Below, piece after piece: positions 34,166 through 47,920 of a stretch of 64,000 nucleotides of DNA (position 1 is the first letter of the stretch; every line of letters starts with the position of its first letter). Source of the stretch: an uncultured Candidatus Saccharibacteria bacterium (GTDB lineage Bacteria; Patescibacteriota; Minisyncoccia; Phycocordibacterales; PALSA-1337); the NCBI GenBank assembly GCA_964645315.1, contig CAZYBH010000003.1, forward strand, positions 5,789 through 69,788, written 5' to 3'. The translations under genes and the position numbers were made by a program. The notes under the pieces are model-generated. The model did not search any database. It worked only from the letters and a program-made list of their open reading frames with translations, and was not told where the DNA came from.

Positions 34166-35236
34166 CTATTCTAAAACCATTTTTAGATCTTGTTCGGTTT
34201 GATTTCTTCTTTCTAATTCATCAGGCTTTTCCTGTTTTGCCCAATCATAATTCTCAAAATAGCTAGACAGTCTGGTATGAGACCTTATTATGGACAATTT
34301 AATTATAATTTCTCCCAATTCCTCTTTTCCAATTTTCTTGTAATTATTTAGTAGAGCCTTATCCAATTCAAAACGAAAACTTTTATTTTTCCACGATCTG
34401 GCTCGCAAATTACCAAAATCAAAAATCATAGCTATAGCACGATTTGGTACTATGCCCACCCATTCCAAATCCAAGAATTCGACATCACCAGAATCGAAAA
34501 TATAAAGATTATTTGGAGCCATATCACCATGTATAAGTGTCACGATATTATTTTCTTCGGTCTCAATATAAGATCTGAAACTATCTATGATTTTAATTAA
34601 CTTTGATTTGATGTTTGTTATACCAAGCCTTTTTTCTAAAACTTTATGAAAATATTCAGATTCAGGATATCCTAGCGGTTTAACTTTTTTATTCAAAAAT
34701 TTAATGATCTCTGTCTTAAAAGATTTAAAATCGCCTTTATTCACTTTTAATTTACTATTCAAGGGTTCAGGTAAGAACGCGACATTAATTTGATGGAAAT
34801 GAAATAGTTGATCAATTGTTTTTTGGGCTTCAACGGCTGTCAAAAATTCAACACCATTATTATTTTCAATAAAACCAATTTTGTCTTTATTGAAAGGAAA
34901 TGTTTCCATAATTGCATACGGGGTGCCTTGTCTCGGGATTACATTGAAATTTATAACACCGCGCGTATTGATTATGTTATTTGATTTCAAATACAAAGCC
35001 ATCTCTATCTGTCGCTCAAAAGGAAGTAAAAGCTTTTTTGTATTATTTTCTGGTATTTTGATAAATCTTTCTACAACACGATCTCCTTCTTTTCTATTTG
35101 CTACCATAAAAAAATACCTCCTACCATTATTTATTCTAGCGTTAATAATTTCTCTTTCTTTATCGCCCACAATAAATCCTTGCTCACTTAGAACTTTCAT
35201 CACCTTCTTTTCATACCTCTGAATTTTATTATTCAT
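34166..35236 (-). CDS. protein-kinase-like phosphotransferase (APH / choline-ethanolamine kinase fold)
   Basis: HGDMAPNNL (catalytic HxD..N) and DLEW (DFG-like) motifs. Confidence 0.65.
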   Translation of the reverse strand: MNNKIQRYEKKVMKVLSEQGFIVGDKEREIINARINNGRRYFFMVANRKEGDRVVERFIKIPENNTKKLLLPFERQIEMALYLKSNNIINTRGVINFNVIPRQGTPYAIMETFPFNKDKIGFIENNNGVEFLTAVEAQKTIDQLFHFHQINVAFLPEPLNSKLKVNKGDFKSFKTEIIKFLNKKVKPLGYPESEYFHKVLEKRLGITNIKSKLIKIIDSFRSYIETEENNIVTLIHGDMAPNNLYIFDSGDVEFLDLEWVGIVPNRAIAMIFDFGNLRARSWKNKSFRFELDKALLNNYKKIGKEELGEIIIKLSIIRSHTRLSSYFENYDWAKQEKPDELERRNQTEQDLKMVLE

Positions 35237-37619: not shown

Positions 37620-37668
37620 TAAATAAATATGTTACATTTTCTCATGTTAGTTCATTAAAAGAAAATAT

Positions 37669-37994
37669 TCCGGAGTAGCTCAGCGGTAGAGCAGTCGCCT
37701 GTGGAGTTCGCAGCTTCCACAAGAAATTGTGGATGACAAACGAGGTGAATTCGGGGAAACCCCAAATGTAAATAAGGGCAATCCCGAGCCAATCCCATCT
37801 TTGTGATGGGCAGGTGTAGAGACTATCCTTTCCAGGAGTAGTGCGAAGTGAAATATCTTCAAACGAAGCGCCTCGTCCCTAAATTATCAAGTTGGAAACT
37901 CGATAACATGGGAATGATATAGTCCGTCCCTATTAGTAATAGTAGGATAAGCGTAAGCGATTGGTCACAGGTTCGAATCCTGTCTCCGGAGCCC
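37669..37994 (+). tRNA. tRNA-Asn (GUU) interrupted by a group I intron; exons 37669..37702 and 37954..37994
   Basis: Exons splice to UCCGGAGUAGCUCAGCGGUAGAGCAGUCGCCUGU|UAAGCGAUUGGUCACAGGUUCGAAUCCUGUCUCCGGAGCC. U1-A72, G73 and anticodon loop CUGUUAA match bacterial tRNA-Asn (compare B. subtilis tRNA-Asn). Anticodon stem is GUCGC/GCGAU. Confidence 0.8.
37703..37953 (+). ncRNA. group I intron (~251 nt) in the tRNA-Asn anticodon loop, between anticodon positions 35 and 36
   Basis: Conserved core elements: P-like AAUUCGGGGAAA, Q-like AAUCCCGAGCC, R-like GGUGUAGAGACUAUCC, S-like AUGAUAUAGUCC (P7 GACUA/UAGUC). P9 hairpin with GUAA tetraloop. The 5' exon ends in U, which pairs with G37710 in a short P1. 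The intron ends in G (37953). Confidence 0.7.
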
Positions 37995-39614
37995 TAGTGA
38001 CGAAACCTCACATTTTGTGGGGTTTTGTCTTTTATTGCTTGATATTTTAGAGGTTCGAGCGCGCTCTAATTCTTCTTCGACCGCCTGACGACTTTTGATG
38101 ATCGTTTTAATGAAAGAATGGTAATTTACAAAGACCTTTTTGCCTTTTAGGGTGAGGTTCGAGCCAAGGCATGCGAGTATCGCTCTTTTGGCTTTATCAT
38201 CTCCTTTTTCAAACCAAATGTGGGCGTAGCAAGCGAAGTCAAAGGTCTGCTCGGTGAGTTCCACCCACTCCAATACCTCTCTGTTTTTCGTCTTCAATTC
38301 TTCTTCGAGTGCCAGTTTCTTTTTTACTATTCCAACCTTGAGCGTTTGGTATTCTTCATCAGTAATTATCGCTCGCTCACTGTTTGCTGGCGAGGTGAAG
38401 TTGAGTGTCAGTGACTGCAAATTCTTGGTGACTTCCTCAAGCTCTTTGTGCTTGCCTTTGAGGACCACAGAATCGCTGTCAACTTCTGTTTTTCGCAGTT
38501 CATGGAGGTGCTTGATTGCCCAGTCTTTGAATCTTTCCGAAATGGTGATCTCACTGAGCTTTTGTTTTATATCAAGTTCCAAGTTCTTAAGCTCTATCAC
38601 TTTCTCCGGACACTTCACGTCTACTTTTTTCTTGGTGCAATTGTAGTAAACGTAGTGGTGAACATTGCCGTTCTTACATCGCTTTACTTTCGCCTGTGCA
38701 GTGATACTACAGCCACACGTGCCGCATTTCATAAGCGAGGTGAAGGCAAAGCTGCGCTCTGGCCGAGGTCGTGGTTGCATGGTTCTTCCCATGATCTGTT
38801 GGACCTTATTGAATTCTTCTTCGGTTATCATGGCTTCATGTGCGCCTTTGTGCCATTCTCCGCTTTTGTAGGGATATTCAAACCAGCCGTAATAAAAGGG
38901 GTTGCTTAGGAGTGCATAGATGCCGCTTTTAGAAAGATGCTTGCCACCCATATTTCTTCGTTGATACGTTTTCAAATTCAACTCCTTACGAGCCACATCC
39001 CATATTTGAATTGTGCTGTAGTTACCGGTAAGCATGAGGTCAAAGAGTCTCTTTACCACAGGAAAACGTTCAGGGTCCTTCATGATGGTCTTGAATCCTT
39101 TTTCTCGGTCTGGTGTGCTCATATATCCCACAGGACACATGCTTGGTAGCCAGCCTTCTCGGACCTTCTTTGCAAGACCTCGCTTTACGTTTACTGATAA
39201 GTCTCTGATGTACTGGTTGGCCATGCCAAGCTCAACTTGCATCATGAGGACATTGTCCGTTGGGTAGTATGTTCGGCCGAATGTCACAATCTGTGCGATT
39301 GCACTTTGCTGTAGCATCCAGCTTATTTGTCCACCGTCCACAGGGTTGCGTGCAAGGCGGTCCAGTTTCCAACAGATGATTCCATTCGCTTCGCCTTTGT
39401 AAATTCTCTCAAGCATTTTGTTGAATACTGGTCTTCCTGGTTTCTTGGCCGATTGTGATTCGGTAAGGACCTCAACTATCGCCAAGCCTTGCTCTTCTGC
39501 AATCTTCAAGAGTTCATCTTTCTGAGCATCGATTGATGCCGCTTGTCTGTCTTCCGCCTCGCTTGATTTACGAGCGTAGAGGAAGTATTTGATTGTAGGT
39601 GTTTTATTATTCAT
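37965..39614 (-). CDS. large serine recombinase (resolvase/invertase-type catalytic domain + recombinase domain + zinc-ribbon)
   Basis: IKYFLYARKSSEAEDRQ...SIDAQ (catalytic Ser) and LDRLARN motifs. C-terminal Cys-rich region. The 3' end overlaps the last ~30 nt of the tRNA-Asn gene. Start taken at MNNKTPTIKY (39614). Confidence 0.85.
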   Translation of the reverse strand: MNNKTPTIKYFLYARKSSEAEDRQAASIDAQKDELLKIAEEQGLAIVEVLTESQSAKKPGRPVFNKMLERIYKGEANGIICWKLDRLARNPVDGGQISWMLQQSAIAQIVTFGRTYYPTDNVLMMQVELGMANQYIRDLSVNVKRGLAKKVREGWLPSMCPVGYMSTPDREKGFKTIMKDPERFPVVKRLFDLMLTGNYSTIQIWDVARKELNLKTYQRRNMGGKHLSKSGIYALLSNPFYYGWFEYPYKSGEWHKGAHEAMITEEEFNKVQQIMGRTMQPRPRPERSFAFTSLMKCGTCGCSITAQAKVKRCKNGNVHHYVYYNCTKKKVDVKCPEKVIELKNLELDIKQKLSEITISERFKDWAIKHLHELRKTEVDSDSVVLKGKHKELEEVTKNLQSLTLNFTSPANSERAIITDEEYQTLKVGIVKKKLALEEELKTKNREVLEWVELTEQTFDFACYAHIWFEKGDDKAKRAILACLGSNLTLKGKKVFVNYHSFIKTIIKSRQAVEEELERARTSKISSNKRQNPTKCEVSSLGLRRQDSNL

Positions 39615-40452
39615 ATGCGCTTTTAATGTTATCTTCCGACCGTTTTTCACCGTTTTTAAATGGTGGTTTTTGCTCTATGGCAGTTACATTATCGTCACTG
39701 CGTGGTTCCCGTAATTTTCCCGTTATTTCGGGAAAGGTCGTCTCACCGGGCTGACGAACGACAGTATCCCCAGAAGGGTCTCGAATAGCAACTGATTCCT
39801 GACTTCTTGGCATCTGCCATTTCTGCATTGTTCCCCTTAACACATCTCCAATGTGAGTTACAGAATTAGGAGAGTTTTTTCTTAGGTTAGTTAGAGTTTC
39901 ATTATCATCACTGCGATATGGTCGCTTATTGTAACTGCGAGGGCGTTGTTTTTGTAACTGCGGTGGTGCCTCGGATATCTTTATTTTTCGATTCCAGTTA
40001 GGGACCGGCAACCATAGCTCGCTCGCATGGAAAGTGTAGAGATTTACCATGTTGAACATACCATCAGCTCTCGTAACGCCGATAATGCCGTAGCCTTCGA
40101 GGATGCGAATTGCCTTAATGATGCTACTTCTGTTTTTACTGCCGACGAGTTCCTGAATGGTAGTGATACTTGGAAACGCCGCCTGGCTTTCGGTGTTGCA
40201 GTGGACCAAAAGCGCCATATATACTGACGTACATAACTTTGAGAGTGTTGCAAGATATCCGCCTTGCACATATTCGTTATCAACGAAGAACCTGCTCGAC
40301 TTATTCTTTTTGCGAAGTTTGGACCGATCTATCTTGTCATGCAGTCTGTTGAGGTAGGCTTTCTTTTGATTGTGGTTGAGGTCCTTTCTTGTTTTTGATT
40401 TGTCTCTTAGTATCCACTCGATCAATTCCTTGTCGTTTTCCATATTCTTCAA
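39607..40452 (-). CDS. hypothetical protein with central HTH-like segment (possible replication/regulatory protein)
   Basis: FPSITTIQELVGSKNRSSIIKAIRILEGYGII resembles a winged-helix/HTH. The N-terminal region overlaps the 40337..40600 ORF in another frame. Confidence 0.45.
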   Translation of the reverse strand: MKNMENDKELIEWILRDKSKTRKDLNHNQKKAYLNRLHDKIDRSKLRKKNKSSRFFVDNEYVQGGYLATLSKLCTSVYMALLVHCNTESQAAFPSITTIQELVGSKNRSSIIKAIRILEGYGIIGVTRADGMFNMVNLYTFHASELWLPVPNWNRKIKISEAPPQLQKQRPRSYNKRPYRSDDNETLTNLRKNSPNSVTHIGDVLRGTMQKWQMPRSQESVAIRDPSGDTVVRQPGETTFPEITGKLREPRSDDNVTAIEQKPPFKNGEKRSEDNIKSAYE

Positions 40453-40914: not shown

Positions 40915-42789
40915 TTAGGCTTTCTTCCACAGATCATCTAAATCTATCGTACCACTTTGAGGCCTTCGTTTCTTATCAAGAAGCTTAATTTTTAAAGAAA
41001 GTGGAAATTGAGTCATTTGTCCAGCAATAAAACAGCAACCTGTAGCAAGGTTTGAAATCGAGTCAAAAGAAAGCTTATCCAAATAACTTACCGCCTTATT
41101 AACTGACTTTAAATCATTTTCGTTCATCAATTTGTGAATAAAATAATTATGAAGCTGAGAAATTATGGTGGGAGAAATATCAGATGGTCTCTGACTAGCA
41201 ATTGTAAGAAAAACTCCAAACTTTCTACCTTCCTTTATTATTTCCTCAAACGTTTCTAGACGATAATCTTTCCAAGTTTCAGACTCTCTTACAGAGTTTT
41301 CAGATAAAATGTTATGTGCCTCGTCAATAATAATATGGAGGGATGTATTATTTTTATAAGTTTTTTTCTGATTCTCGTATAACTTTTTTAGAATGACTAA
41401 TGGCAAAGATTTTTTAATATCTCTATTGGCAGATTTTAGATCTATAACTACCAAGTTGTTGCCTTTTCCAAAAATATTCTTTTTAGCATTTGTACTAGTG
41501 TCAAAGACTTTCTGAATGCTTTTTTTGACACTTTCAAGTCTAGTTATGCAATGATAGACGTGGTCATCGTGAACTCTGTTATCTAGCAAATCATAAAGTA
41601 ATTGCATTCTTGCAAAGTCGAGGAACTTTTCAATTATATTGTCAGGAAATACATAAGTATCTGCCTGAGTATAAAATACTTGTGATTTATATTGCTCGTC
41701 AGTTATCTGGTCATAATCAGTAGTTCCACCACATTTAAAGTATGAATGGGTATTATGCCATTCAGGAATAACAAAATCTTGGTTGTCAGTTTCAATCTTA
41801 AGTATTTGTTTGTATCGATCTATACACAAAAATGCCAGTTCTTTATTTTTTAATTTCAAAATTCTGAGCGCTATTAACTTCAAGTTATTTTTGAAATAGT
41901 CATTAGAATTGTTTTCTTTTGTTATCTTTTTAAATAAGCTTATCGAGCGATTCAAAAATGGCTTTTGTGTTTTTTCACTAGCACCAGAAAGTATTGATAT
42001 AAGTTCAATATCAATAAAACCATTTTCGTTCAAAGGAACACGATTTTTGTTATTTATTTTTTCTAACTCAATTTCAGTATTAAGTTTATATACTTTTTTC
42101 TTTTTACTAAGAACATCTGAAGATGAGTATTCACCATTAAAATCAATAAATATAAACTTGGATTTGGATTTAAATTTTTCATTAAGATTTTCTAATCCAA
42201 ATAGTTCTGCATACATTTTTGCAAGAGTATTTGATTTACCAGACCCTGTATTGCCAAAAATACCAATATGACCTGCAAATAGTTTTTTAGCTGAAATTGA
42301 AATATCTTGAGTCTCTTCATCAATCAGTGATCCAAGGGTAACGGAAAGCTCTTTTTCATCAGAAAGCTGATGTAATATTTCAAATTCTTCTCTAGAAAGA
42401 AGTTTACATTCACTACCAATTAGAGGCATTTCTTTGATACCGTGTTGAAAGTTAAAATCGCTATCATAGAATCCAAAAACTGAAACATTGAGAAATCGGC
42501 TTATCTTCTTATTCTCATTTGTATATTTTTTCTTAGTTTGATATCTATCCTCTTCGAGATACTCACCCTCGACTTTACAAATTATTTCAGTAAAACCTTT
42601 AACTATTTTCACATAGTTGGATAGCCCAACAGAAACATTTTTTATTGTTCTACCTTTAAAAAATAGATGAGGGAGATTCTTGTCATTCTTTACCTTAACA
42701 ACAATATCTTTGCCCTTAACACTAAATACACTGCCAATGGTAAATACGGAATTATCAACTAGTCTTTCATGTAAATTAAAGTTGTTCAT
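40915..42789 (-). CDS. herA: HerA-like (DUF87/FtsK-HerA superfamily) ATPase, SIR2-HerA defense system component
   Basis: Walker A IGIFGNTGSGKSNTL and Walker B LHIIIDEAHNIL (DEAH). Start taken at MNNFNLHERL (42789), which overlaps the SIR2 stop by 14 nt. Confidence 0.8.
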   Translation of the reverse strand: MNNFNLHERLVDNSVFTIGSVFSVKGKDIVVKVKNDKNLPHLFFKGRTIKNVSVGLSNYVKIVKGFTEIICKVEGEYLEEDRYQTKKKYTNENKKISRFLNVSVFGFYDSDFNFQHGIKEMPLIGSECKLLSREEFEILHQLSDEKELSVTLGSLIDEETQDISISAKKLFAGHIGIFGNTGSGKSNTLAKMYAELFGLENLNEKFKSKSKFIFIDFNGEYSSSDVLSKKKKVYKLNTEIELEKINNKNRVPLNENGFIDIELISILSGASEKTQKPFLNRSISLFKKITKENNSNDYFKNNLKLIALRILKLKNKELAFLCIDRYKQILKIETDNQDFVIPEWHNTHSYFKCGGTTDYDQITDEQYKSQVFYTQADTYVFPDNIIEKFLDFARMQLLYDLLDNRVHDDHVYHCITRLESVKKSIQKVFDTSTNAKKNIFGKGNNLVVIDLKSANRDIKKSLPLVILKKLYENQKKTYKNNTSLHIIIDEAHNILSENSVRESETWKDYRLETFEEIIKEGRKFGVFLTIASQRPSDISPTIISQLHNYFIHKLMNENDLKSVNKAVSYLDKLSFDSISNLATGCCFIAGQMTQFPLSLKIKLLDKKRRPQSGTIDLDDLWKKA

Positions 42790-43789
42790 CGTCTTTATCC
42801 GGTTCAAGGACCTCTTGTTCTTTATTTGTGAATATACCAGAAAGGAATTCTGTGCTTTTTTCAAATGGCAAATTATTTTCTACATAGAAGTTTGACTTTT
42901 TCTTTTCCTCTAGATCATCTACCACTTCATCGTATTCTTTGTGATAAAGATAAACTACTATTAGGGTCGGATTGTTCTTCATTACACCGTAAAGTAACTC
43001 TCTTATATGTTTATCTTTAAGAGAAAATCCTAATATAAACAAAACACTATTTTCTTTTTCCAGCTCTAACGTAAACTTCCTTAGCATGGAAGCGTAATTA
43101 GTATCTAGAACTGTTTCAAGGTGTTTTTCTGCATTTGGATTGATGACAGCAACTTGTTTATACCCTGTAGCAAAATCATTCCCGGTTTTACTATCCAGAT
43201 CATCAGCAATATGCGAACCATTTGAATAGATGATTTTTTCCTCTTTTGTCTTCCAAGAAAGTGAACCGTGAAGTTTAATGATATTGAAAAGTGGAATGTC
43301 GGAAGTGTTATCAAATTGAAGGCTCTTATATTTTTGAATTTTGTTAAAATTTGCCACGCTAAATACTGAATTGATTTGCCCGGCAAATCCATCATTGTAC
43401 GGTATACCTAAACGCTCACAGGCATCTTCTATAAACATGTCAAAGTTCGTGCTGAAAATATTGACTTGTTTATTTACGATATGTAATGATCGACGGGAAA
43501 TAGTATCAGCCCAAAAATTTAAAAATGTATCATAGTTCTGTTTGGTTTTAGTAAGCTTACCTTGTTCTGCCACATCCACCTCAAAGGTTGAATTTAGAAT
43601 AGCTTTTGATTTGCGGATGATCTTATAATAATCTTTTTGTGCGACCTCTTTGGTAGCATCATTATTCATTCGGTTTTCAATGTCTTGCAGGGTCGAAAGA
43701 TAGTCAAGAGAACAACCAGAACCAATAAGTAGATTTATGTGGCCACTTTGAATTATTTCTTTGAGTTCTTTTTTATCGATTTTTTTCAT
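42776..43789 (-). CDS. SIR2-like NADase domain protein, SIR2-HerA defense system component
   Basis: INLLIGSGCS (GAGIS-like), FSTNFDMF (TQNID-like) and IIKLHGSLSW (catalytic HG) motifs. Lies immediately upstream of HerA in the same orientation. Confidence 0.8.
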   Translation of the reverse strand: MKKIDKKELKEIIQSGHINLLIGSGCSLDYLSTLQDIENRMNNDATKEVAQKDYYKIIRKSKAILNSTFEVDVAEQGKLTKTKQNYDTFLNFWADTISRRSLHIVNKQVNIFSTNFDMFIEDACERLGIPYNDGFAGQINSVFSVANFNKIQKYKSLQFDNTSDIPLFNIIKLHGSLSWKTKEEKIIYSNGSHIADDLDSKTGNDFATGYKQVAVINPNAEKHLETVLDTNYASMLRKFTLELEKENSVLFILGFSLKDKHIRELLYGVMKNNPTLIVVYLYHKEYDEVVDDLEEKKKSNFYVENNLPFEKSTEFLSGIFTNKEQEVLEPDKDDEQL

Positions 43790-46101
43790 ACTTTTAATTT
43801 GACCCACTCACTCCAATCACCACGTTCGCATTTTTCCCAGTTGTAAGTAGATTCTTGGTTTAATGTCCAATCTCCATTTCTCTCAATCACAACACCACCA
43901 AAAAGCTTTTTATTCTTCTGGGTCTTTATGTATTGGTACAAAGCCTCAGCCTTAGCTTTTGTGTAAGTTTTACCATCACGATCACCTGAATCCTTTACTT
44001 CAAATATACCGATCTTTCCATCAGTGAATTGGACCAGATAGTCCGGATAGAAAGTATAGATAGCACCAGAGTATTCATACTTCACGCCAAAGTATTCCTG
44101 TTTGTTTTCTCCATTTTTCCACCACCAAGTTATTTTTGAGCTATTATCATTCAAAAACTTCTCAAAAGATTTCTCGGGTAGGGATCGGTCAATGTTTAGG
44201 TAGCATGGCTGATAGGCATACTTTTTGGTAGGAACAATTTCATCAGTAAATTCGTTATAAAAAAGCTCTATAGGGAGTTCAAAAGCATATTTCTTTTCGC
44301 TTTCTTCTACTCGCTTTCGGACCTCAGCCTCTTTGACCGTCTTGTATTCATCGACTGCCTTAGTAAGAATCTTTTCAATCGCTGGACGATTGTCTTTGTG
44401 CATACAAAGCTTTTGAATGAGGAGTATTTCCTCATGCCAATCTTCTGAATTGAGGTATTTTCTGAACCACAAATAAATAGCAGTCTTTACGCTTGGAATA
44501 GAGCGCTTAACATTTCTAAATGGACCGAGCTGTGACTTAATCATTTGCTCAAAGAAAATCTGCAATTCATCAGCAGCAACACTAAGCTTTGCCATAGCAG
44601 TGGGATCTATATTTCCTTGAAGTTCATCAAAGTTTTTAGCACTGATATGAGTGTCAGCAATAATTTGTTGCTGGTACTTTTCAAGCTCAACATCAATACC
44701 CATATTCTTGAGTGACGTCTTGATCTTCACCAGTTTCTCACCATCTTCTATACCAAGTTCTCTGTTTACTACCTTTTCAAATACCGGCGTAAAGCTTGAG
44801 GTGATGTCTCCGTAATCAGCACGTGCTTTATAGTAAGAATCAATTTTGAGCGGCTTATACTCCTTAACTCTATTAGCCTTTAGATGTTTGATTATGTTTG
44901 GATTGTATTCTTCTTTCTTAACTGAAATAGATTCCAAGTTTGTATAGATGTAACCACGATTAAGAGCCTCATTTTCATAATGCTTTTGTTCTGGCATACG
45001 TAAGATTCGTCCGACAGTCTGTATTTCAAAAACAATATTCGAAGATTCTCTAAACTTCACAAGAATATGAGCACGAGGACAGTCCCATCCAGTATCAATT
45101 GCTTGTTTGAATATCAAAAACTCAATCTGATTGTCCGATTCAGAAATCCACTCGATAGTGTCTGATTTTTGTTCAGCAAGCCAAATAGCAAGCTTTCCAT
45201 TTTTCTCTGTAATACCCTTATCACCAAGAAACTTTTTAACAGCATCAATCTTTTGATCACCAGCCTCGGATGTAGGAATCTGTATTAAGACAAGAGGATT
45301 AATATCAGAATCTTCTTTTGCAAAAGCCTTCTTAAGTTCAAGACGTTTTTTATATGCCGCCTCTAAGACTGCTGTCTGTGAATCATCTTCTGATTTTGCA
45401 ATCTTCTCAATATCCTCATTGATGATGAGCTCTTTCTTAATCATCCCTTCTTCGATAACGTCTTTTGGATTCACCTTTACCAATCCAGCGCGAGTTTCAA
45501 CAATATCTTCAGCTGTAATTTTTATACTTGGTGTGGCACTCATTTCAATCGTTACATCGGCAGCAATAAGCTCACGAAGTTCCTGAGCGCGACCTGTAGA
45601 TGCGTTGGTGTGACTCTCATCAATAATAAGAATTATCTTTCTCTGTTCTTTAGTTTTTTCAAGTACATCACGGAAATTAAGTTTCTCACCATCTTTCATG
45701 GCGAGGTTTTTCCAATCACCAGACTTACCATCCTTGGCACGTAGTTTTTCCCAGTTTGCCACTACGACTTCATTCTGAACAATACGCTCTCTACCACCAC
45801 TAAATTCACCCTCAACAAGTGAGACACGAGGAAAACCCCCGAAGATTCGCTCGAGAGATCGCTTACTCTGTCCATGAAGATCACCTTTACCAATACTCAT
45901 CCAAATAAAACAAAGATCTTCGTTTGGAAGTTCTTTTATAAGACTCTCTATAAAAATAGCAGTCATGACAGTCTTGCCTGATCCGGTAGGGGCTTGAAAT
46001 ACACAAACTTCACCAGGACCGTCAAAATCCAAAAGTTTAACTGTCGTGTCAACAAGCTGGTTGACTGCTTTTTCTTGATAGGGTTTTAAATTAATACTCA
46101 T
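43786..46101 (-). CDS. res: Type III restriction enzyme Res subunit (SF2 helicase + C-terminal PD-(D/E)xK nuclease)
   Basis: FQAPTGSGKT (motif I), IIDESH (motif II), MSATP (motif III), QTVGRILR (motif VI), and C-terminal PDYLVQFTDGKIGIFEVKD. Confidence 0.85.
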   Translation of the reverse strand: MSINLKPYQEKAVNQLVDTTVKLLDFDGPGEVCVFQAPTGSGKTVMTAIFIESLIKELPNEDLCFIWMSIGKGDLHGQSKRSLERIFGGFPRVSLVEGEFSGGRERIVQNEVVVANWEKLRAKDGKSGDWKNLAMKDGEKLNFRDVLEKTKEQRKIILIIDESHTNASTGRAQELRELIAADVTIEMSATPSIKITAEDIVETRAGLVKVNPKDVIEEGMIKKELIINEDIEKIAKSEDDSQTAVLEAAYKKRLELKKAFAKEDSDINPLVLIQIPTSEAGDQKIDAVKKFLGDKGITEKNGKLAIWLAEQKSDTIEWISESDNQIEFLIFKQAIDTGWDCPRAHILVKFRESSNIVFEIQTVGRILRMPEQKHYENEALNRGYIYTNLESISVKKEEYNPNIIKHLKANRVKEYKPLKIDSYYKARADYGDITSSFTPVFEKVVNRELGIEDGEKLVKIKTSLKNMGIDVELEKYQQQIIADTHISAKNFDELQGNIDPTAMAKLSVAADELQIFFEQMIKSQLGPFRNVKRSIPSVKTAIYLWFRKYLNSEDWHEEILLIQKLCMHKDNRPAIEKILTKAVDEYKTVKEAEVRKRVEESEKKYAFELPIELFYNEFTDEIVPTKKYAYQPCYLNIDRSLPEKSFEKFLNDNSSKITWWWKNGENKQEYFGVKYEYSGAIYTFYPDYLVQFTDGKIGIFEVKDSGDRDGKTYTKAKAEALYQYIKTQKNKKLFGGVVIERNGDWTLNQESTYNWEKCERGDWSEWVKLKV

Positions 46102-47920
46102 AAATTTGTTTGTATACGTCTAGAATCTTTTGTGGAATTGGCTCGACCGTAACATCTTTCCATCCACTAAAATCTTTTTTATTTAATCCAAGAGGATCAA
46201 GAGTAAAACAGTAGAGAATCTTTTCTCCTTCGATCTTACTTAAATCCTTTTTAAGTTCTGATAAGGCCTTCCGATCTAGGGAATAGTAGGCGGCAAGAAC
46301 CCTATTACCTTTCTGGAATACTCTATAATCATCAGTTGTTTTTACTTCATCAAAAATACCTTCACGTAGACAAAGCATTTCTGTACATTCCTTTGTCATA
46401 CGGATCTTCAAATCATCTTTGTTTGCAGTTTTCTTGATGAATTTAGTTTTGAAGTATTTTAGAGATCCTACACCAGTATTTGTGAGAACATTGTTTAATC
46501 TAGGATATGTTTTTTCGAGACAAATATTTTCTTCATTATTTGTACATAAAATAAATTTATGTTGCGTACCTTTATCCTTATTAAGCTCTACAACCGCATG
46601 GCCTGTTGATCCACTTCCTGCAAAAAAGTCTAGAATTGTCGCATTATCATCTGAAACAAAATGAATTAGTTGCTTTATCAATCTAATTGGTTTTTTACCA
46701 TTCTTAAAATCAATCCCACCTTCTTTAGCAACGTTACCCATATCAAGATAAAAGCCTGGCCACCAGTCACCCCTGATAGTAGTTACACCGTAAGTTTGGT
46801 AATAGTCATCAGCCTTTCTAACTTTATCTGATAAGCGAATTCTTTGTTTATATTCTCCCTTACCGTTATATCCAACTAAATAAGATCGATCATTTGAGCC
46901 ATACTCAATTAAGATACCCTCTTTAACTTTAGATAGAACTTCTTTGTCTTTTATCTCTACAGTATCGTGAATACGAACAATCTGATCTGCTTTTTTATTT
47001 ATAAAATCTCTTACTTCATCAAGTTTTGCATAAGCATCAGAGATTTGATTATTAGTCATCGATCTCTTTCCTTTTGAATCTTTAGCTAAATTCAAAAAAC
47101 ATAATTTTTCAAATATCTTGTTATCCGCACATAAAACGCTTGTGAGTGATGTCTCTGAATAAGTTCCATCCGTATTTTTATTTATAAACAGGGAGTAGTG
47201 ATTGTCGTATTCAATCGGATCGTACAAAACATTTTTTCCGATAGTCTTTCTTCCATCTTTTGAATACACAAGAATATACTCGGCATTTTTTACTATATTA
47301 CCCATCTTTGCTGATCTTACTTTTTGACCTTGGACCGTAGACATCTGAACGTGCAAAGTGGTAACAAAATTATTTAAACCAAAAACCTCATCGCACAGTA
47401 GTCTAAGCTGAGACTGTTCATTGTCATCTATCGAAATAAAAATAACTCCAGTCTCTCTCAGTAGATTTTTTGCTAATCGCAACCTTTTTGACATGAAAGA
47501 CAACCATTTGCTGTGTTTATATTCGTCCTCACTATCAACATAATTGTCGTTATAAATAAAATCCCTATTACCAGTGTTGTAGGGTGGGTCAATATAAATA
47601 ACATCAACTTTTCCTTGATGAGTGAAATTTAAGACAGAGAGTGCATGGTAGTTATCGCCCTCAATCAATATGTTTACTGGTCTAGTGTCGTCTTTGTCAG
47701 TAATTTCTTTTCCTTTTACTTCCTTAAGAACTGGTAGTGCATTTTCGGCATCTTTCTCGAACTGTTCTTTCACCTTATCTTCATCCCAGATAAGTCCATA
47801 TTTCTTTCGAGATTCAAGCTTTTCTACAATTTTAATTAGATCCTCTTTGCTAAGGTTGGAATAATCTTTCTTTGAATTCTTATTGGTTGCAATGGGATTC
47901 ATTACACAACACTTTACCAT
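46091..47920 (-). CDS. mod: Type III R-M Mod subunit (beta-class N6-adenine DNA methyltransferase)
   Basis: DPPY (motif IV: IYIDPPYNTGN) precedes motif I FxGxG (ILDFFAGSGSTG). Overlaps the res start by 11 nt. An alternative start is MNPIATN at 47902. Confidence 0.85.
   Translation of the reverse strand: MVKCCVMNPIATNKNSKKDYSNLSKEDLIKIVEKLESRKKYGLIWDEDKVKEQFEKDAENALPVLKEVKGKEITDKDDTRPVNILIEGDNYHALSVLNFTHQGKVDVIYIDPPYNTGNRDFIYNDNYVDSEDEYKHSKWLSFMSKRLRLAKNLLRETGVIFISIDDNEQSQLRLLCDEVFGLNNFVTTLHVQMSTVQGQKVRSAKMGNIVKNAEYILVYSKDGRKTIGKNVLYDPIEYDNHYSLFINKNTDGTYSETSLTSVLCADNKIFEKLCFLNLAKDSKGKRSMTNNQISDAYAKLDEVRDFINKKADQIVRIHDTVEIKDKEVLSKVKEGILIEYGSNDRSYLVGYNGKGEYKQRIRLSDKVRKADDYYQTYGVTTIRGDWWPGFYLDMGNVAKEGGIDFKNGKKPIRLIKQLIHFVSDDNATILDFFAGSGSTGHAVVELNKDKGTQHKFILCTNNEENICLEKTYPRLNNVLTNTGVGSLKYFKTKFIKKTANKDDLKIRMTKECTEMLCLREGIFDEVKTTDDYRVFQKGNRVLAAYYSLDRKALSELKKDLSKIEGEKILYCFTLDPLGLNKKDFSGWKDVTVEPIPQKILDVYKQIYEY

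Follow-up and report, generated by a model that had tools for sequence, protein, structure and literature searches.

A tRNA-Asn(GUU) Gene Split between Positions 35 and 36 by a 251-nt Group I Intron of Apparent IA Type in a Probable Patescibacteria Bacterium

The analysis of a DNA stretch of 64,000 nucleotides (hereafter, the window) revealed that the segment 37669-37992 of the plus strand harbors a tRNA-Asn(GUU) gene whose anticodon loop is cut between positions 35 and 36 by a group I intron of 251 nt. According to the data reported below, this is very probably a functional gene of a Patescibacteria (CPR) bacterium, split between U35 and U36 by an ORF-less intron with the features of the IA type. 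The fold of the intron, its conservation and covariation, its exact boundaries, and the identity of the tRNA product were observed directly in the comparisons described here.

Results and Discussion

Organization of the Split tRNA-Asn Gene

The 5' exon (UCCGGAGUAGCUCAGCGGUAGAGCAGUCGCCUGU; 37669-37702, plus strand) covers positions 1-35 of the tRNA and ends with U33, G34, and U35 (CCUGU); the intron-less gene found at the syntenic locus L142 (Ga0172379_10001834) has exactly this sequence as its 5' half. The 3' exon (UAAGCGAUUGGUCACAGGUUCGAAUCCUGUCUCCGGAGC; 37954-37992, plus strand) starts with UAAGCGAU and runs from U36, A37, and A38 onward, comprising the 3' strand of the anticodon stem, the variable loop, the T arm, the 3' strand of the acceptor stem, G73 (37991), and C74; the CCA end is only incompletely encoded in it.

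When the sequence was spliced in silico between 37702 and 37954, ARAGORN called a tRNA-Asn(gtt) of 76 nt with the pair U1-A72 and with G73 at 37991, and the ligated exons match the L142 gene at 73 out of 73 positions. These data bear out the proposal of the first-pass annotation that the two exons rebuild a tRNA-Asn(GUU). The span that it gave to the gene (37669-37994) was right at the start and had to be shortened at the end: the last two C residues belong to an inserted island, and the conserved tRNA ends at 37992. In its default mode, ARAGORN retrieved only a tRNA-Ala from the 64-kb window, and the same program found no second, intron-less tRNA-Asn within it.

Upstream of the tRNA lie priA, def, fmt, and the gene for a ribosome hibernation factor (HPF). 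Downstream, on the island side of the junction, there is a terminator-like hairpin followed by a T run (37999-38029, plus strand), the sequence of which also follows the intron-less tRNA-Asn of another locus, L140. Kinase-like ORFs occur near the tRNA both in the window (34166-35236, minus strand, 356 aa) and in the intron-bearing locus L043 (502-1458, 318 aa); their positions differ, and neither has a Pfam match on record in the Logan contig.

Identity and Core Elements of the Intron

The sequence between the exons (37703-37953, plus strand, 251 nt) is identified as a group I intron by an Rfam match, by covariation, and by the comparison with intron-less alleles. The search with the model RF00028 (Intron_gpI), which had been recommended as a check, retrieved a match that scores 73 bits, the gathering score being 50 (E-value 1.3e-16). 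This match is far beyond chance expectation; it is the sole one to RF00028 in the 64-kb window and one of the two Rfam matches found there overall. The limits of the match (37623-37946) were considered as the intron ends and rejected, since the match had pushed the P1 and P2 of the model into the upstream flank at low posterior probability, and a terminal G is not among the features that the model looks for.

The four core elements can be read from the sequence, all on the plus strand: the P element AAUUCGGGGAAA at 37748-37759, the Q element AAUCCCGAGCC at 37780-37790, the R element GGUGUAGAGACUAUCC at 37813-37828, and the S element AUGAUAUAGUCC at 37914-37925. The first-pass annotation had described an insert of 251 nt with these four elements, a P9 hairpin closed by a GUAA loop, and a terminal G, and each of them was recovered at the place where it had been located. 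Neither a homing-endonuclease ORF (HNH, LAGLIDADG, GIY-YIG, or PD-(D/E)XK) nor any ORF of more than 60 aa was detected in the intron; the ORFs overlapping it have a length of 24-60 aa, and all of them extend out into an exon or a flank.

The last six bases of the intron are the same as the first six of the 3' exon (37948-37959, UAAGCG/UAAGCG, with the slash marking the splice junction). The relatives repeat the UAA part only, with the consensus ...GGAUAAGUG/UAA..., and the longer repeat of the window is probably a coincidence with the anticodon stem of this tRNA.

Secondary Structure and Covariation

The fold was analyzed on an alignment of 41 distinct introns of at most 300 nt sharing the same architecture, obtained with MAFFT without structural input; the structure was drawn by hand from the window sequence and its pairs were scored on the alignment. 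In this P1-P9 model, 91.2% of 2539 cells form standard pairs, a figure that is somewhat favored by a structure drawn from one of the aligned sequences, an advantage that does not carry over in like manner to the number of compensatory changes. Sliding the 3' partners by one to three columns lowers the share of paired cells to 38-44%. Changes on both sides were observed for 45 out of 66 pairs, and the covariation score is 0.470, compared to 0.06-0.11 for the slid partners; none of 500 shuffles reached any of the measures. The helices that covary are P2, P3, P4, P5, P6, P7.1, P7.2, the outer P8, and P9. Moreover, the window intron possesses all 63 invariant columns of the alignment.

P1 (37699-37713, plus strand) is formed by C32, U33, G34, and U35 with the internal guide sequence GCAG (37710-37713), and its loop is 37703-37709. 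Its four base pairs (CUGU/GCAG) are invariant in 41 out of 41 homologues, and U35 (37702) makes a wobble pair with G37710 at the 5' splice site. The motif GCAG(C) is present in nearly all of the at least 95 homologous introns described below; a few, such as L075, are without it in the portion shown. P2 (37716-37733, plus strand) is a hairpin of seven base pairs, all changed on both sides, with a GAAA tetraloop whose second base varies among the 41 sequences (GAAA, GUAA, GCAA, or GGAA).

P3 (37740-37747 with 37869-37876, plus strand) encloses P4, P5, P6, the 5' strand of P7, P7.1, and P7.2. On the same strand, P4 pairs 37751-56 with 37782-87, P5 pairs 37760-62 with 37776-78, and P6 pairs 37789-90 with 37813-14 and 37794-99 with 37805-10; in the helices from P3 to P6, 86-100% of the cells are paired across the 41 introns, and each of the four helices shows compensatory changes. 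P7 (37821-37826 with 37919-37924, plus strand), made of the R and S elements, is the guanosine-binding helix and forms a pseudoknot with P3. Its six pairs are invariant in 41 out of 41 sequences and agree with the R/S pairing that all group I introns share. Since both P1 and P7 are invariant, covariation neither supports nor contradicts them.

Between the 5' strand of P7 and the 3' strand of P3 lie 42 nt (37827-37868) with two covarying hairpins, both on the plus strand: P7.1 (37827-29 with 37834-36), with 97.6% of the cells paired, and P7.2 (37841-42 with 37863-64 and 37845-48 with 37857-60), with 91.4%. All eight pairs of these hairpins are changed on both sides. P7.1 and P7.2 in this position are the hallmark of subgroup IA, and the covarying hairpins point, as judged from the aligned sequences, to an intron of the IA type. 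The trait of IC3 introns of the Azoarcus/Anabaena kind, in which the 3' strand of P3 comes right after P7 without P7.1 and P7.2, was not found in the window intron.

P8 (plus strand) has an outer stem (37877-79 with 37910-12) that covaries, with 95.9% of the cells paired, and an inner stem (37884-88 with 37902-06) of variable length, which is poorly aligned by MAFFT and is paired in 58% of the cells. The P9 hairpin (37929-35 with 37940-46, plus strand) carries a GUAA tetraloop, and six of its seven pairs are changed on both sides. It is followed by AUAAGC and by the terminal G (omega G) at 37953, the last base of the intron on the plus strand.

Two other structural proposals were dropped. The first is a P10 helix, with the 3' exon paired to the bases that precede GCAG; it is not conserved across the at least 95 homologues, those bases being variable, and this, in turn, suggests that the anticodon stem probably holds the 3' exon in place, as is reportedly the case for the Anabaena pre-tRNA intron. 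The second is the minimum free energy fold of the whole precursor (-108.7 kcal/mol, z = -4.06), which recovers P1, P2, P3, P4, P6, P8, and P9 and was not retained as the final model, having the 5' strand of P7 paired locally; the method cannot predict pseudoknots, which accounts for this mispairing.

Splice Sites and Identity of the tRNA

Two positions of the same 251-nt intron have to be compared, since ARAGORN in intron mode, run on the unspliced DNA, reads the gene as Thr(cgt) i(34,251), and shifting the splice sites by two bases in the spliced sequence also yields a tRNA-Thr(CGT) with a cloverleaf. In this alternative, the 5' exon would end at U33 (37700) and the intron at G37951, which could serve as a terminal G; the predicted anticodon loop after ligation would be CUCGUAA, as opposed to CUGUUAA for the tRNA-Asn. 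The junction expected for the latter is CUGU/UAAGCG, and CUCGUAAGCG is the junction contrary to it.

The comparison with intron-less alleles, whose search in relatives had been advised by the first-pass annotation, bears directly on this point. The genes of the L142 locus are arranged as in the window (def, fmt, HPF, and tRNA, with proteins 63%, 54%, and 70% identical, respectively), and its uninterrupted tRNA reads CCTGTTAAGCG, in full agreement over its 73 residues with the product of splicing at 35/36. In blastn searches of L142 and L140 against the window, the alignment stops at 37702 and restarts exactly at 37954; the terminal G is assigned to 37953 on this basis, as had been suggested, and a tRNA-Thr(CGU) is excluded by the same break. 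In addition, the uninterrupted junction of 31 nt (GGTAGAGCAGTCGCCTGTTAAGCGATTGGTC) is harbored by at least 120 metagenome contigs.

The structure of P1 leads to the same result. A U-G wobble in P1 marks the 5' splice sites of group I introns; U35 makes this canonical pair with G37710, whereas U33 is opposite A37712. The short P1 with its U35-G37710 splice-site pair, as well as the rejection of tRNA-Thr(CGU), had already been put forward in the first-pass annotation, and both are upheld by the invariance of P1, by the boundary seen in the intron-less alleles, and by the reading of L142. Furthermore, 17 out of 95 homologues, among the matches listed, have A or T two positions upstream of the terminal G, which means that the 33/34 reading would leave these introns without a terminal G. 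According to the established tRNA identity rules, U1-A72 and G73 are identity elements of tRNA-Asn and fit Asn over Thr. The same Thr miscall has been documented, and refuted by experiment, for introns of this kind (PMC13011429). Overall, we consider it extremely unlikely that the gene encodes a tRNA-Thr(CGU), and the tRNA-Asn(GUU) split at 35/36 is the product assumed in the following sections.

Homologous Introns in Other Genomes

The GTDB representative genomes were scanned for an S element followed within 45 nt by G/UAA, 13 bases, and a T arm, which retrieved at least 120 loci; the 5' exon was then located by its complementarity to the acceptor and anticodon stems. Among the matches listed, 95 out of 115 resolved loci are tRNA-Asn genes with the loop CUGU/UAA, U1-A72, and G73, a count in which the 5' side (CUGU and U1-A72) is independent evidence and the 3' side is not, since the search pattern demanded G/UAA. 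The homologous introns, at least 95 of which are listed, range from 185 to 630 nt and come mostly from Patescibacteria MAGs; CPR or Patescibacteria names appear in roughly three out of four of the 80 titles shown, among the matches listed. The closest intron-bearing relative among the matches listed is L043, labelled "Patescibacteria group bacterium", which has the same gene order as the window, identical exons, and an intron of 237 nt.

Introns of 511-630 nt make up 27 of the 95 homologues among the matches listed, and these may carry an endonuclease gene. The intron of the window belongs to a rarer type as regards its 3' end, which is GCG in four out of 95 homologues among the matches listed, the usual one being GUG; the GCG end is also the reason why the miscall is Thr(CGU) and not Thr(UGU).

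P7.1 and P7.2 are present in 68 of 94 homologues among the matches listed. A short "GACUAGAUACC" class, accounting for 15 of the 94 homologues among the matches listed (L009, L015, L021, L033, L035, L040, L073-L076, L082, L089, L093, L102, and L106), lacks any insertion separating P7 from the 3' strand of P3. Its R element reads ...CGCCGUAGAGACUAGAUACC..., and the 26-47 nt that separate P7 from the S element imply that P7.1 and P7.2 are lacking. CPR MAGs are the source of several of them, and the exons of L106 are nearly identical to those of the window. One might propose that group I introns of different structure have occupied the 35/36 site, and that, if the short ones are IC-type introns in Patescibacteria, this site was invaded, or its intron replaced, more than once; we regard this as a rather unlikely scenario. 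If true, it would contradict PMC13011429, according to which none of the tRNA introns of Patescibacteria is IC, and it would imply that introns move horizontally more often than one would expect from the scarcity of endonuclease genes, a matter that concerns the family and not the intron of the window.

Introns at 35/36 of tRNA-Asn were also observed in MAGs labelled Omnitrophota, Planctomycetota, Elusimicrobia, and "uncultured Gammaproteobacteria" (L011, L013, L031, L052, L069, and L071, together with L009, L034, L054, L055, L065, L072, and L079, which are those labelled Gammaproteobacteria). Part of this labelling may result from errors in binning or naming; if it does not, the family extends past Patescibacteria.

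The Adjacent Recombinase Island

An island begins at the junction 37992/37993, immediately past the tRNA; it extends from 37993 on (CCTAGTGACGAAACC...), and its genes, all on the minus strand, run to 47920. The first of them (37965-39650) encodes a large serine recombinase of 561 aa with Resolvase, Recombinase, and Zn_ribbon_recom domains; its C-terminal codons are the complement of the tRNA 3' exon, and the ORF ends 12 nt from the intron. It is followed by the genes for an HTH protein (39607-40452), for the defence pair HerA (40915-42864) and SIR2 (42776-43807), and for the res (43786-46101) and mod (46091-47920) proteins of a type III restriction-modification system.

The first-pass annotation had raised the question of whether the intron, abutting an integrase-bearing island, is mobile. 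The idea that it is an actively mobile element, brought by the island or moving with it, draws on the recombinase gene terminating inside the 3' exon so close to the intron. However, the intron has no endonuclease ORF, and the island starts outside the tRNA. The same left end of the island (L140 6404-7507 versus window 37954-39023, 90.6% nucleotide identity over 1072 nt), with a recombinase 96% identical at the amino acid level, adjoins the intron-less tRNA-Asn of a different species in L140, and related island ends follow the intron-less tRNA-Asn genes of L188 and L195. Conversely, no such island was found downstream of the intron-bearing tRNA of L043, the nearest such relative among the matches listed. 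The presence of the island beside tRNA-Asn genes with or without the intron indicates that it targets tRNA-Asn 3' ends regardless, and provides no evidence on the mobility of the intron; we therefore give virtually no credence to a joint movement of the two, and the intron is treated here as independent of the island.

The extension of the recombinase ORF into the tRNA is conserved, the alignments reaching residue 561, and this recombinase family appears, from the sequences compared, to use the tRNA-Asn 3' end as its attachment site across Patescibacteria. No second copy of the tRNA 3' end (23 nt, with up to three mismatches) was detected in the window as an att repeat, an absence that is expected for a serine recombinase. 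The downstream flank of L043, with its 318-aa kinase-like gene, was used as a guide to the far junction of the island and had no match in the window. The Logan contig SRR11567528_903235 (L001), which is identical to the window in this region, stops at 37992, that is, at the junction between tRNA and island; this suggests that its end is a branch of the assembly graph and that both island-bearing and island-free variants occur in that sample.

Proposed Splicing Mechanism and Functionality of the Gene

According to the model proposed here, the primary transcript would fold into a group I core made of P3-P9 plus P7.1 and P7.2. C32, U33, G34, and U35 would pair with the guide GCAG (37710-37713) to form P1, in which the U35-G37710 wobble would set the 5' splice site. 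P7 would bind an exogenous guanosine, and this would attack after U35; the terminal G37953 would then occupy the guanosine site, and the freed 3' OH of U35 would attack after G37953, joining ...CUGU to UAAGCG... and restoring the loop CUGUUAA. The product would then undergo the usual processing of tRNA ends and receive its CCA. We infer that this copy is spliced and that it serves as the working tRNA-Asn gene of the cell.

In principle, the intron-bearing gene might instead be a decaying pseudogene that does not splice, the cell obtaining its tRNA-Asn from a second gene outside the window. This would be compatible with the 64 kb over which the genome is seen, with splicing at the locus being predicted from sequence, and with a tRNA 3' end where CCA is not encoded and an island is inserted. 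A decaying gene, however, is hardly expected to keep exons 100% identical to the intron-less gene of the syntenic L142, nor an intron retaining every invariant position of the 41 homologues and able to form all the helices. A terminator-like hairpin still follows the gene, and the state of the 3' end is not peculiar to it, the same junction being shared by the intron-less, island-bearing tRNA-Asn genes of L140 and L188. These data make a pseudogene highly unlikely and are in favor of a functional, split tRNA-Asn(GUU) gene.

The locus also illustrates a problem of annotation. With standard tools, the default mode of ARAGORN misses the gene and the intron mode assigns it the wrong amino acid; as a consequence, a genome of this kind would seem to be devoid of tRNA-Asn and to harbor a spurious tRNA-Thr(CGU), which distorts both completeness estimates and codon-usage inference.

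Comparison with Known Systems

The classical introns of bacterial tRNA genes are those of tRNA-Leu(UAA) in cyanobacteria (34/35), tRNA-fMet (33/34), tRNA-Ile(CAU) in Azoarcus, and tRNA-Arg(CCU) in Agrobacterium (36/37). These Leu, fMet, Ile, and Arg introns are of the IC3 type and lack P7.1 and P7.2. They share with the window intron the small size, the location in the anticodon loop, a P1 built from anticodon-loop bases, and GNRA loops on P2 and P9, self-splicing being predicted for the latter; the window intron differs from them in its covarying P7.1 and P7.2 and in the position of the insertion.

The first-pass annotation was not aware of any intron at 35/36 of tRNA-Asn; such introns have, in fact, been catalogued (Williams, bioRxiv 2020, 10.1101/2020.01.27.920355) and shown to self-splice (PMC13011429). 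Williams presented tFind and raised the four classical classes of intron-split tRNAs to 21; per PMC13011429, "Asn.4Ug" is one of these, it is at times mislabelled "Thr.2Ug" by tFind, and Williams was already aware that the two can be confused. The definition of this class (insertion after the fourth base of the anticodon loop, U at -1, and terminal G) is the same that applies to the window intron; the catalogue is purely computational, and the membership of the window intron follows the description given in PMC13011429.

The closest counterparts are the introns studied by Nakagawa et al. (mSystems 2026, PMC13011429; preprint July 2025, 10.1101/2025.07.03.662931) in 95 complete Patescibacteria genomes, where a group I intron splits 15 tRNA-Asn(GUU) genes at 35/36. 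Such genes are frequently reported by ARAGORN and tFind as Thr at 33/34; nearly all the introns were classified as IA. Subgroup-specific models assigned 25 out of 28 introns at 35/36 to IA, and 81% of bacterial tRNA introns are IC. Most of them have no endonuclease gene, and HNH genes occur in some. Precise self-splicing at 35/36 was obtained in vitro and no longer took place once the terminal G had been mutated to C (PMC13011429). The window intron resembles these introns in the tRNA, the anticodon, the site, the IA-type architecture, the U at -1, the terminal G, and the ARAGORN miscall as Thr at 33/34, as well as in being without an endonuclease gene, like most of them. The host would also be of the same phylum, as indicated by the label of L043 and by the spread of the matches.

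The window intron is about 62% identical to the intron of GCA_016700035.1 validated in vitro (PMC13011429), which apparently has one hairpin where the window intron has both P7.1 and P7.2; it also ends with the rarer GCG, as opposed to the GUG usual in the family. The portion of the PMC13011429 supplementary tables that was covered does not contain the exact exon and intron strings of the window. The arrangement is therefore already known, as is the enrichment of such introns in Patescibacteria. The window intron joins a family that has been both described and validated by experiment, and it stands apart only in its rarer GCG 3' end (four of 95, among the matches listed). To this family, the locus adds one more example, together with a natural pair of intron-bearing and intron-less genes at the same syntenic locus.
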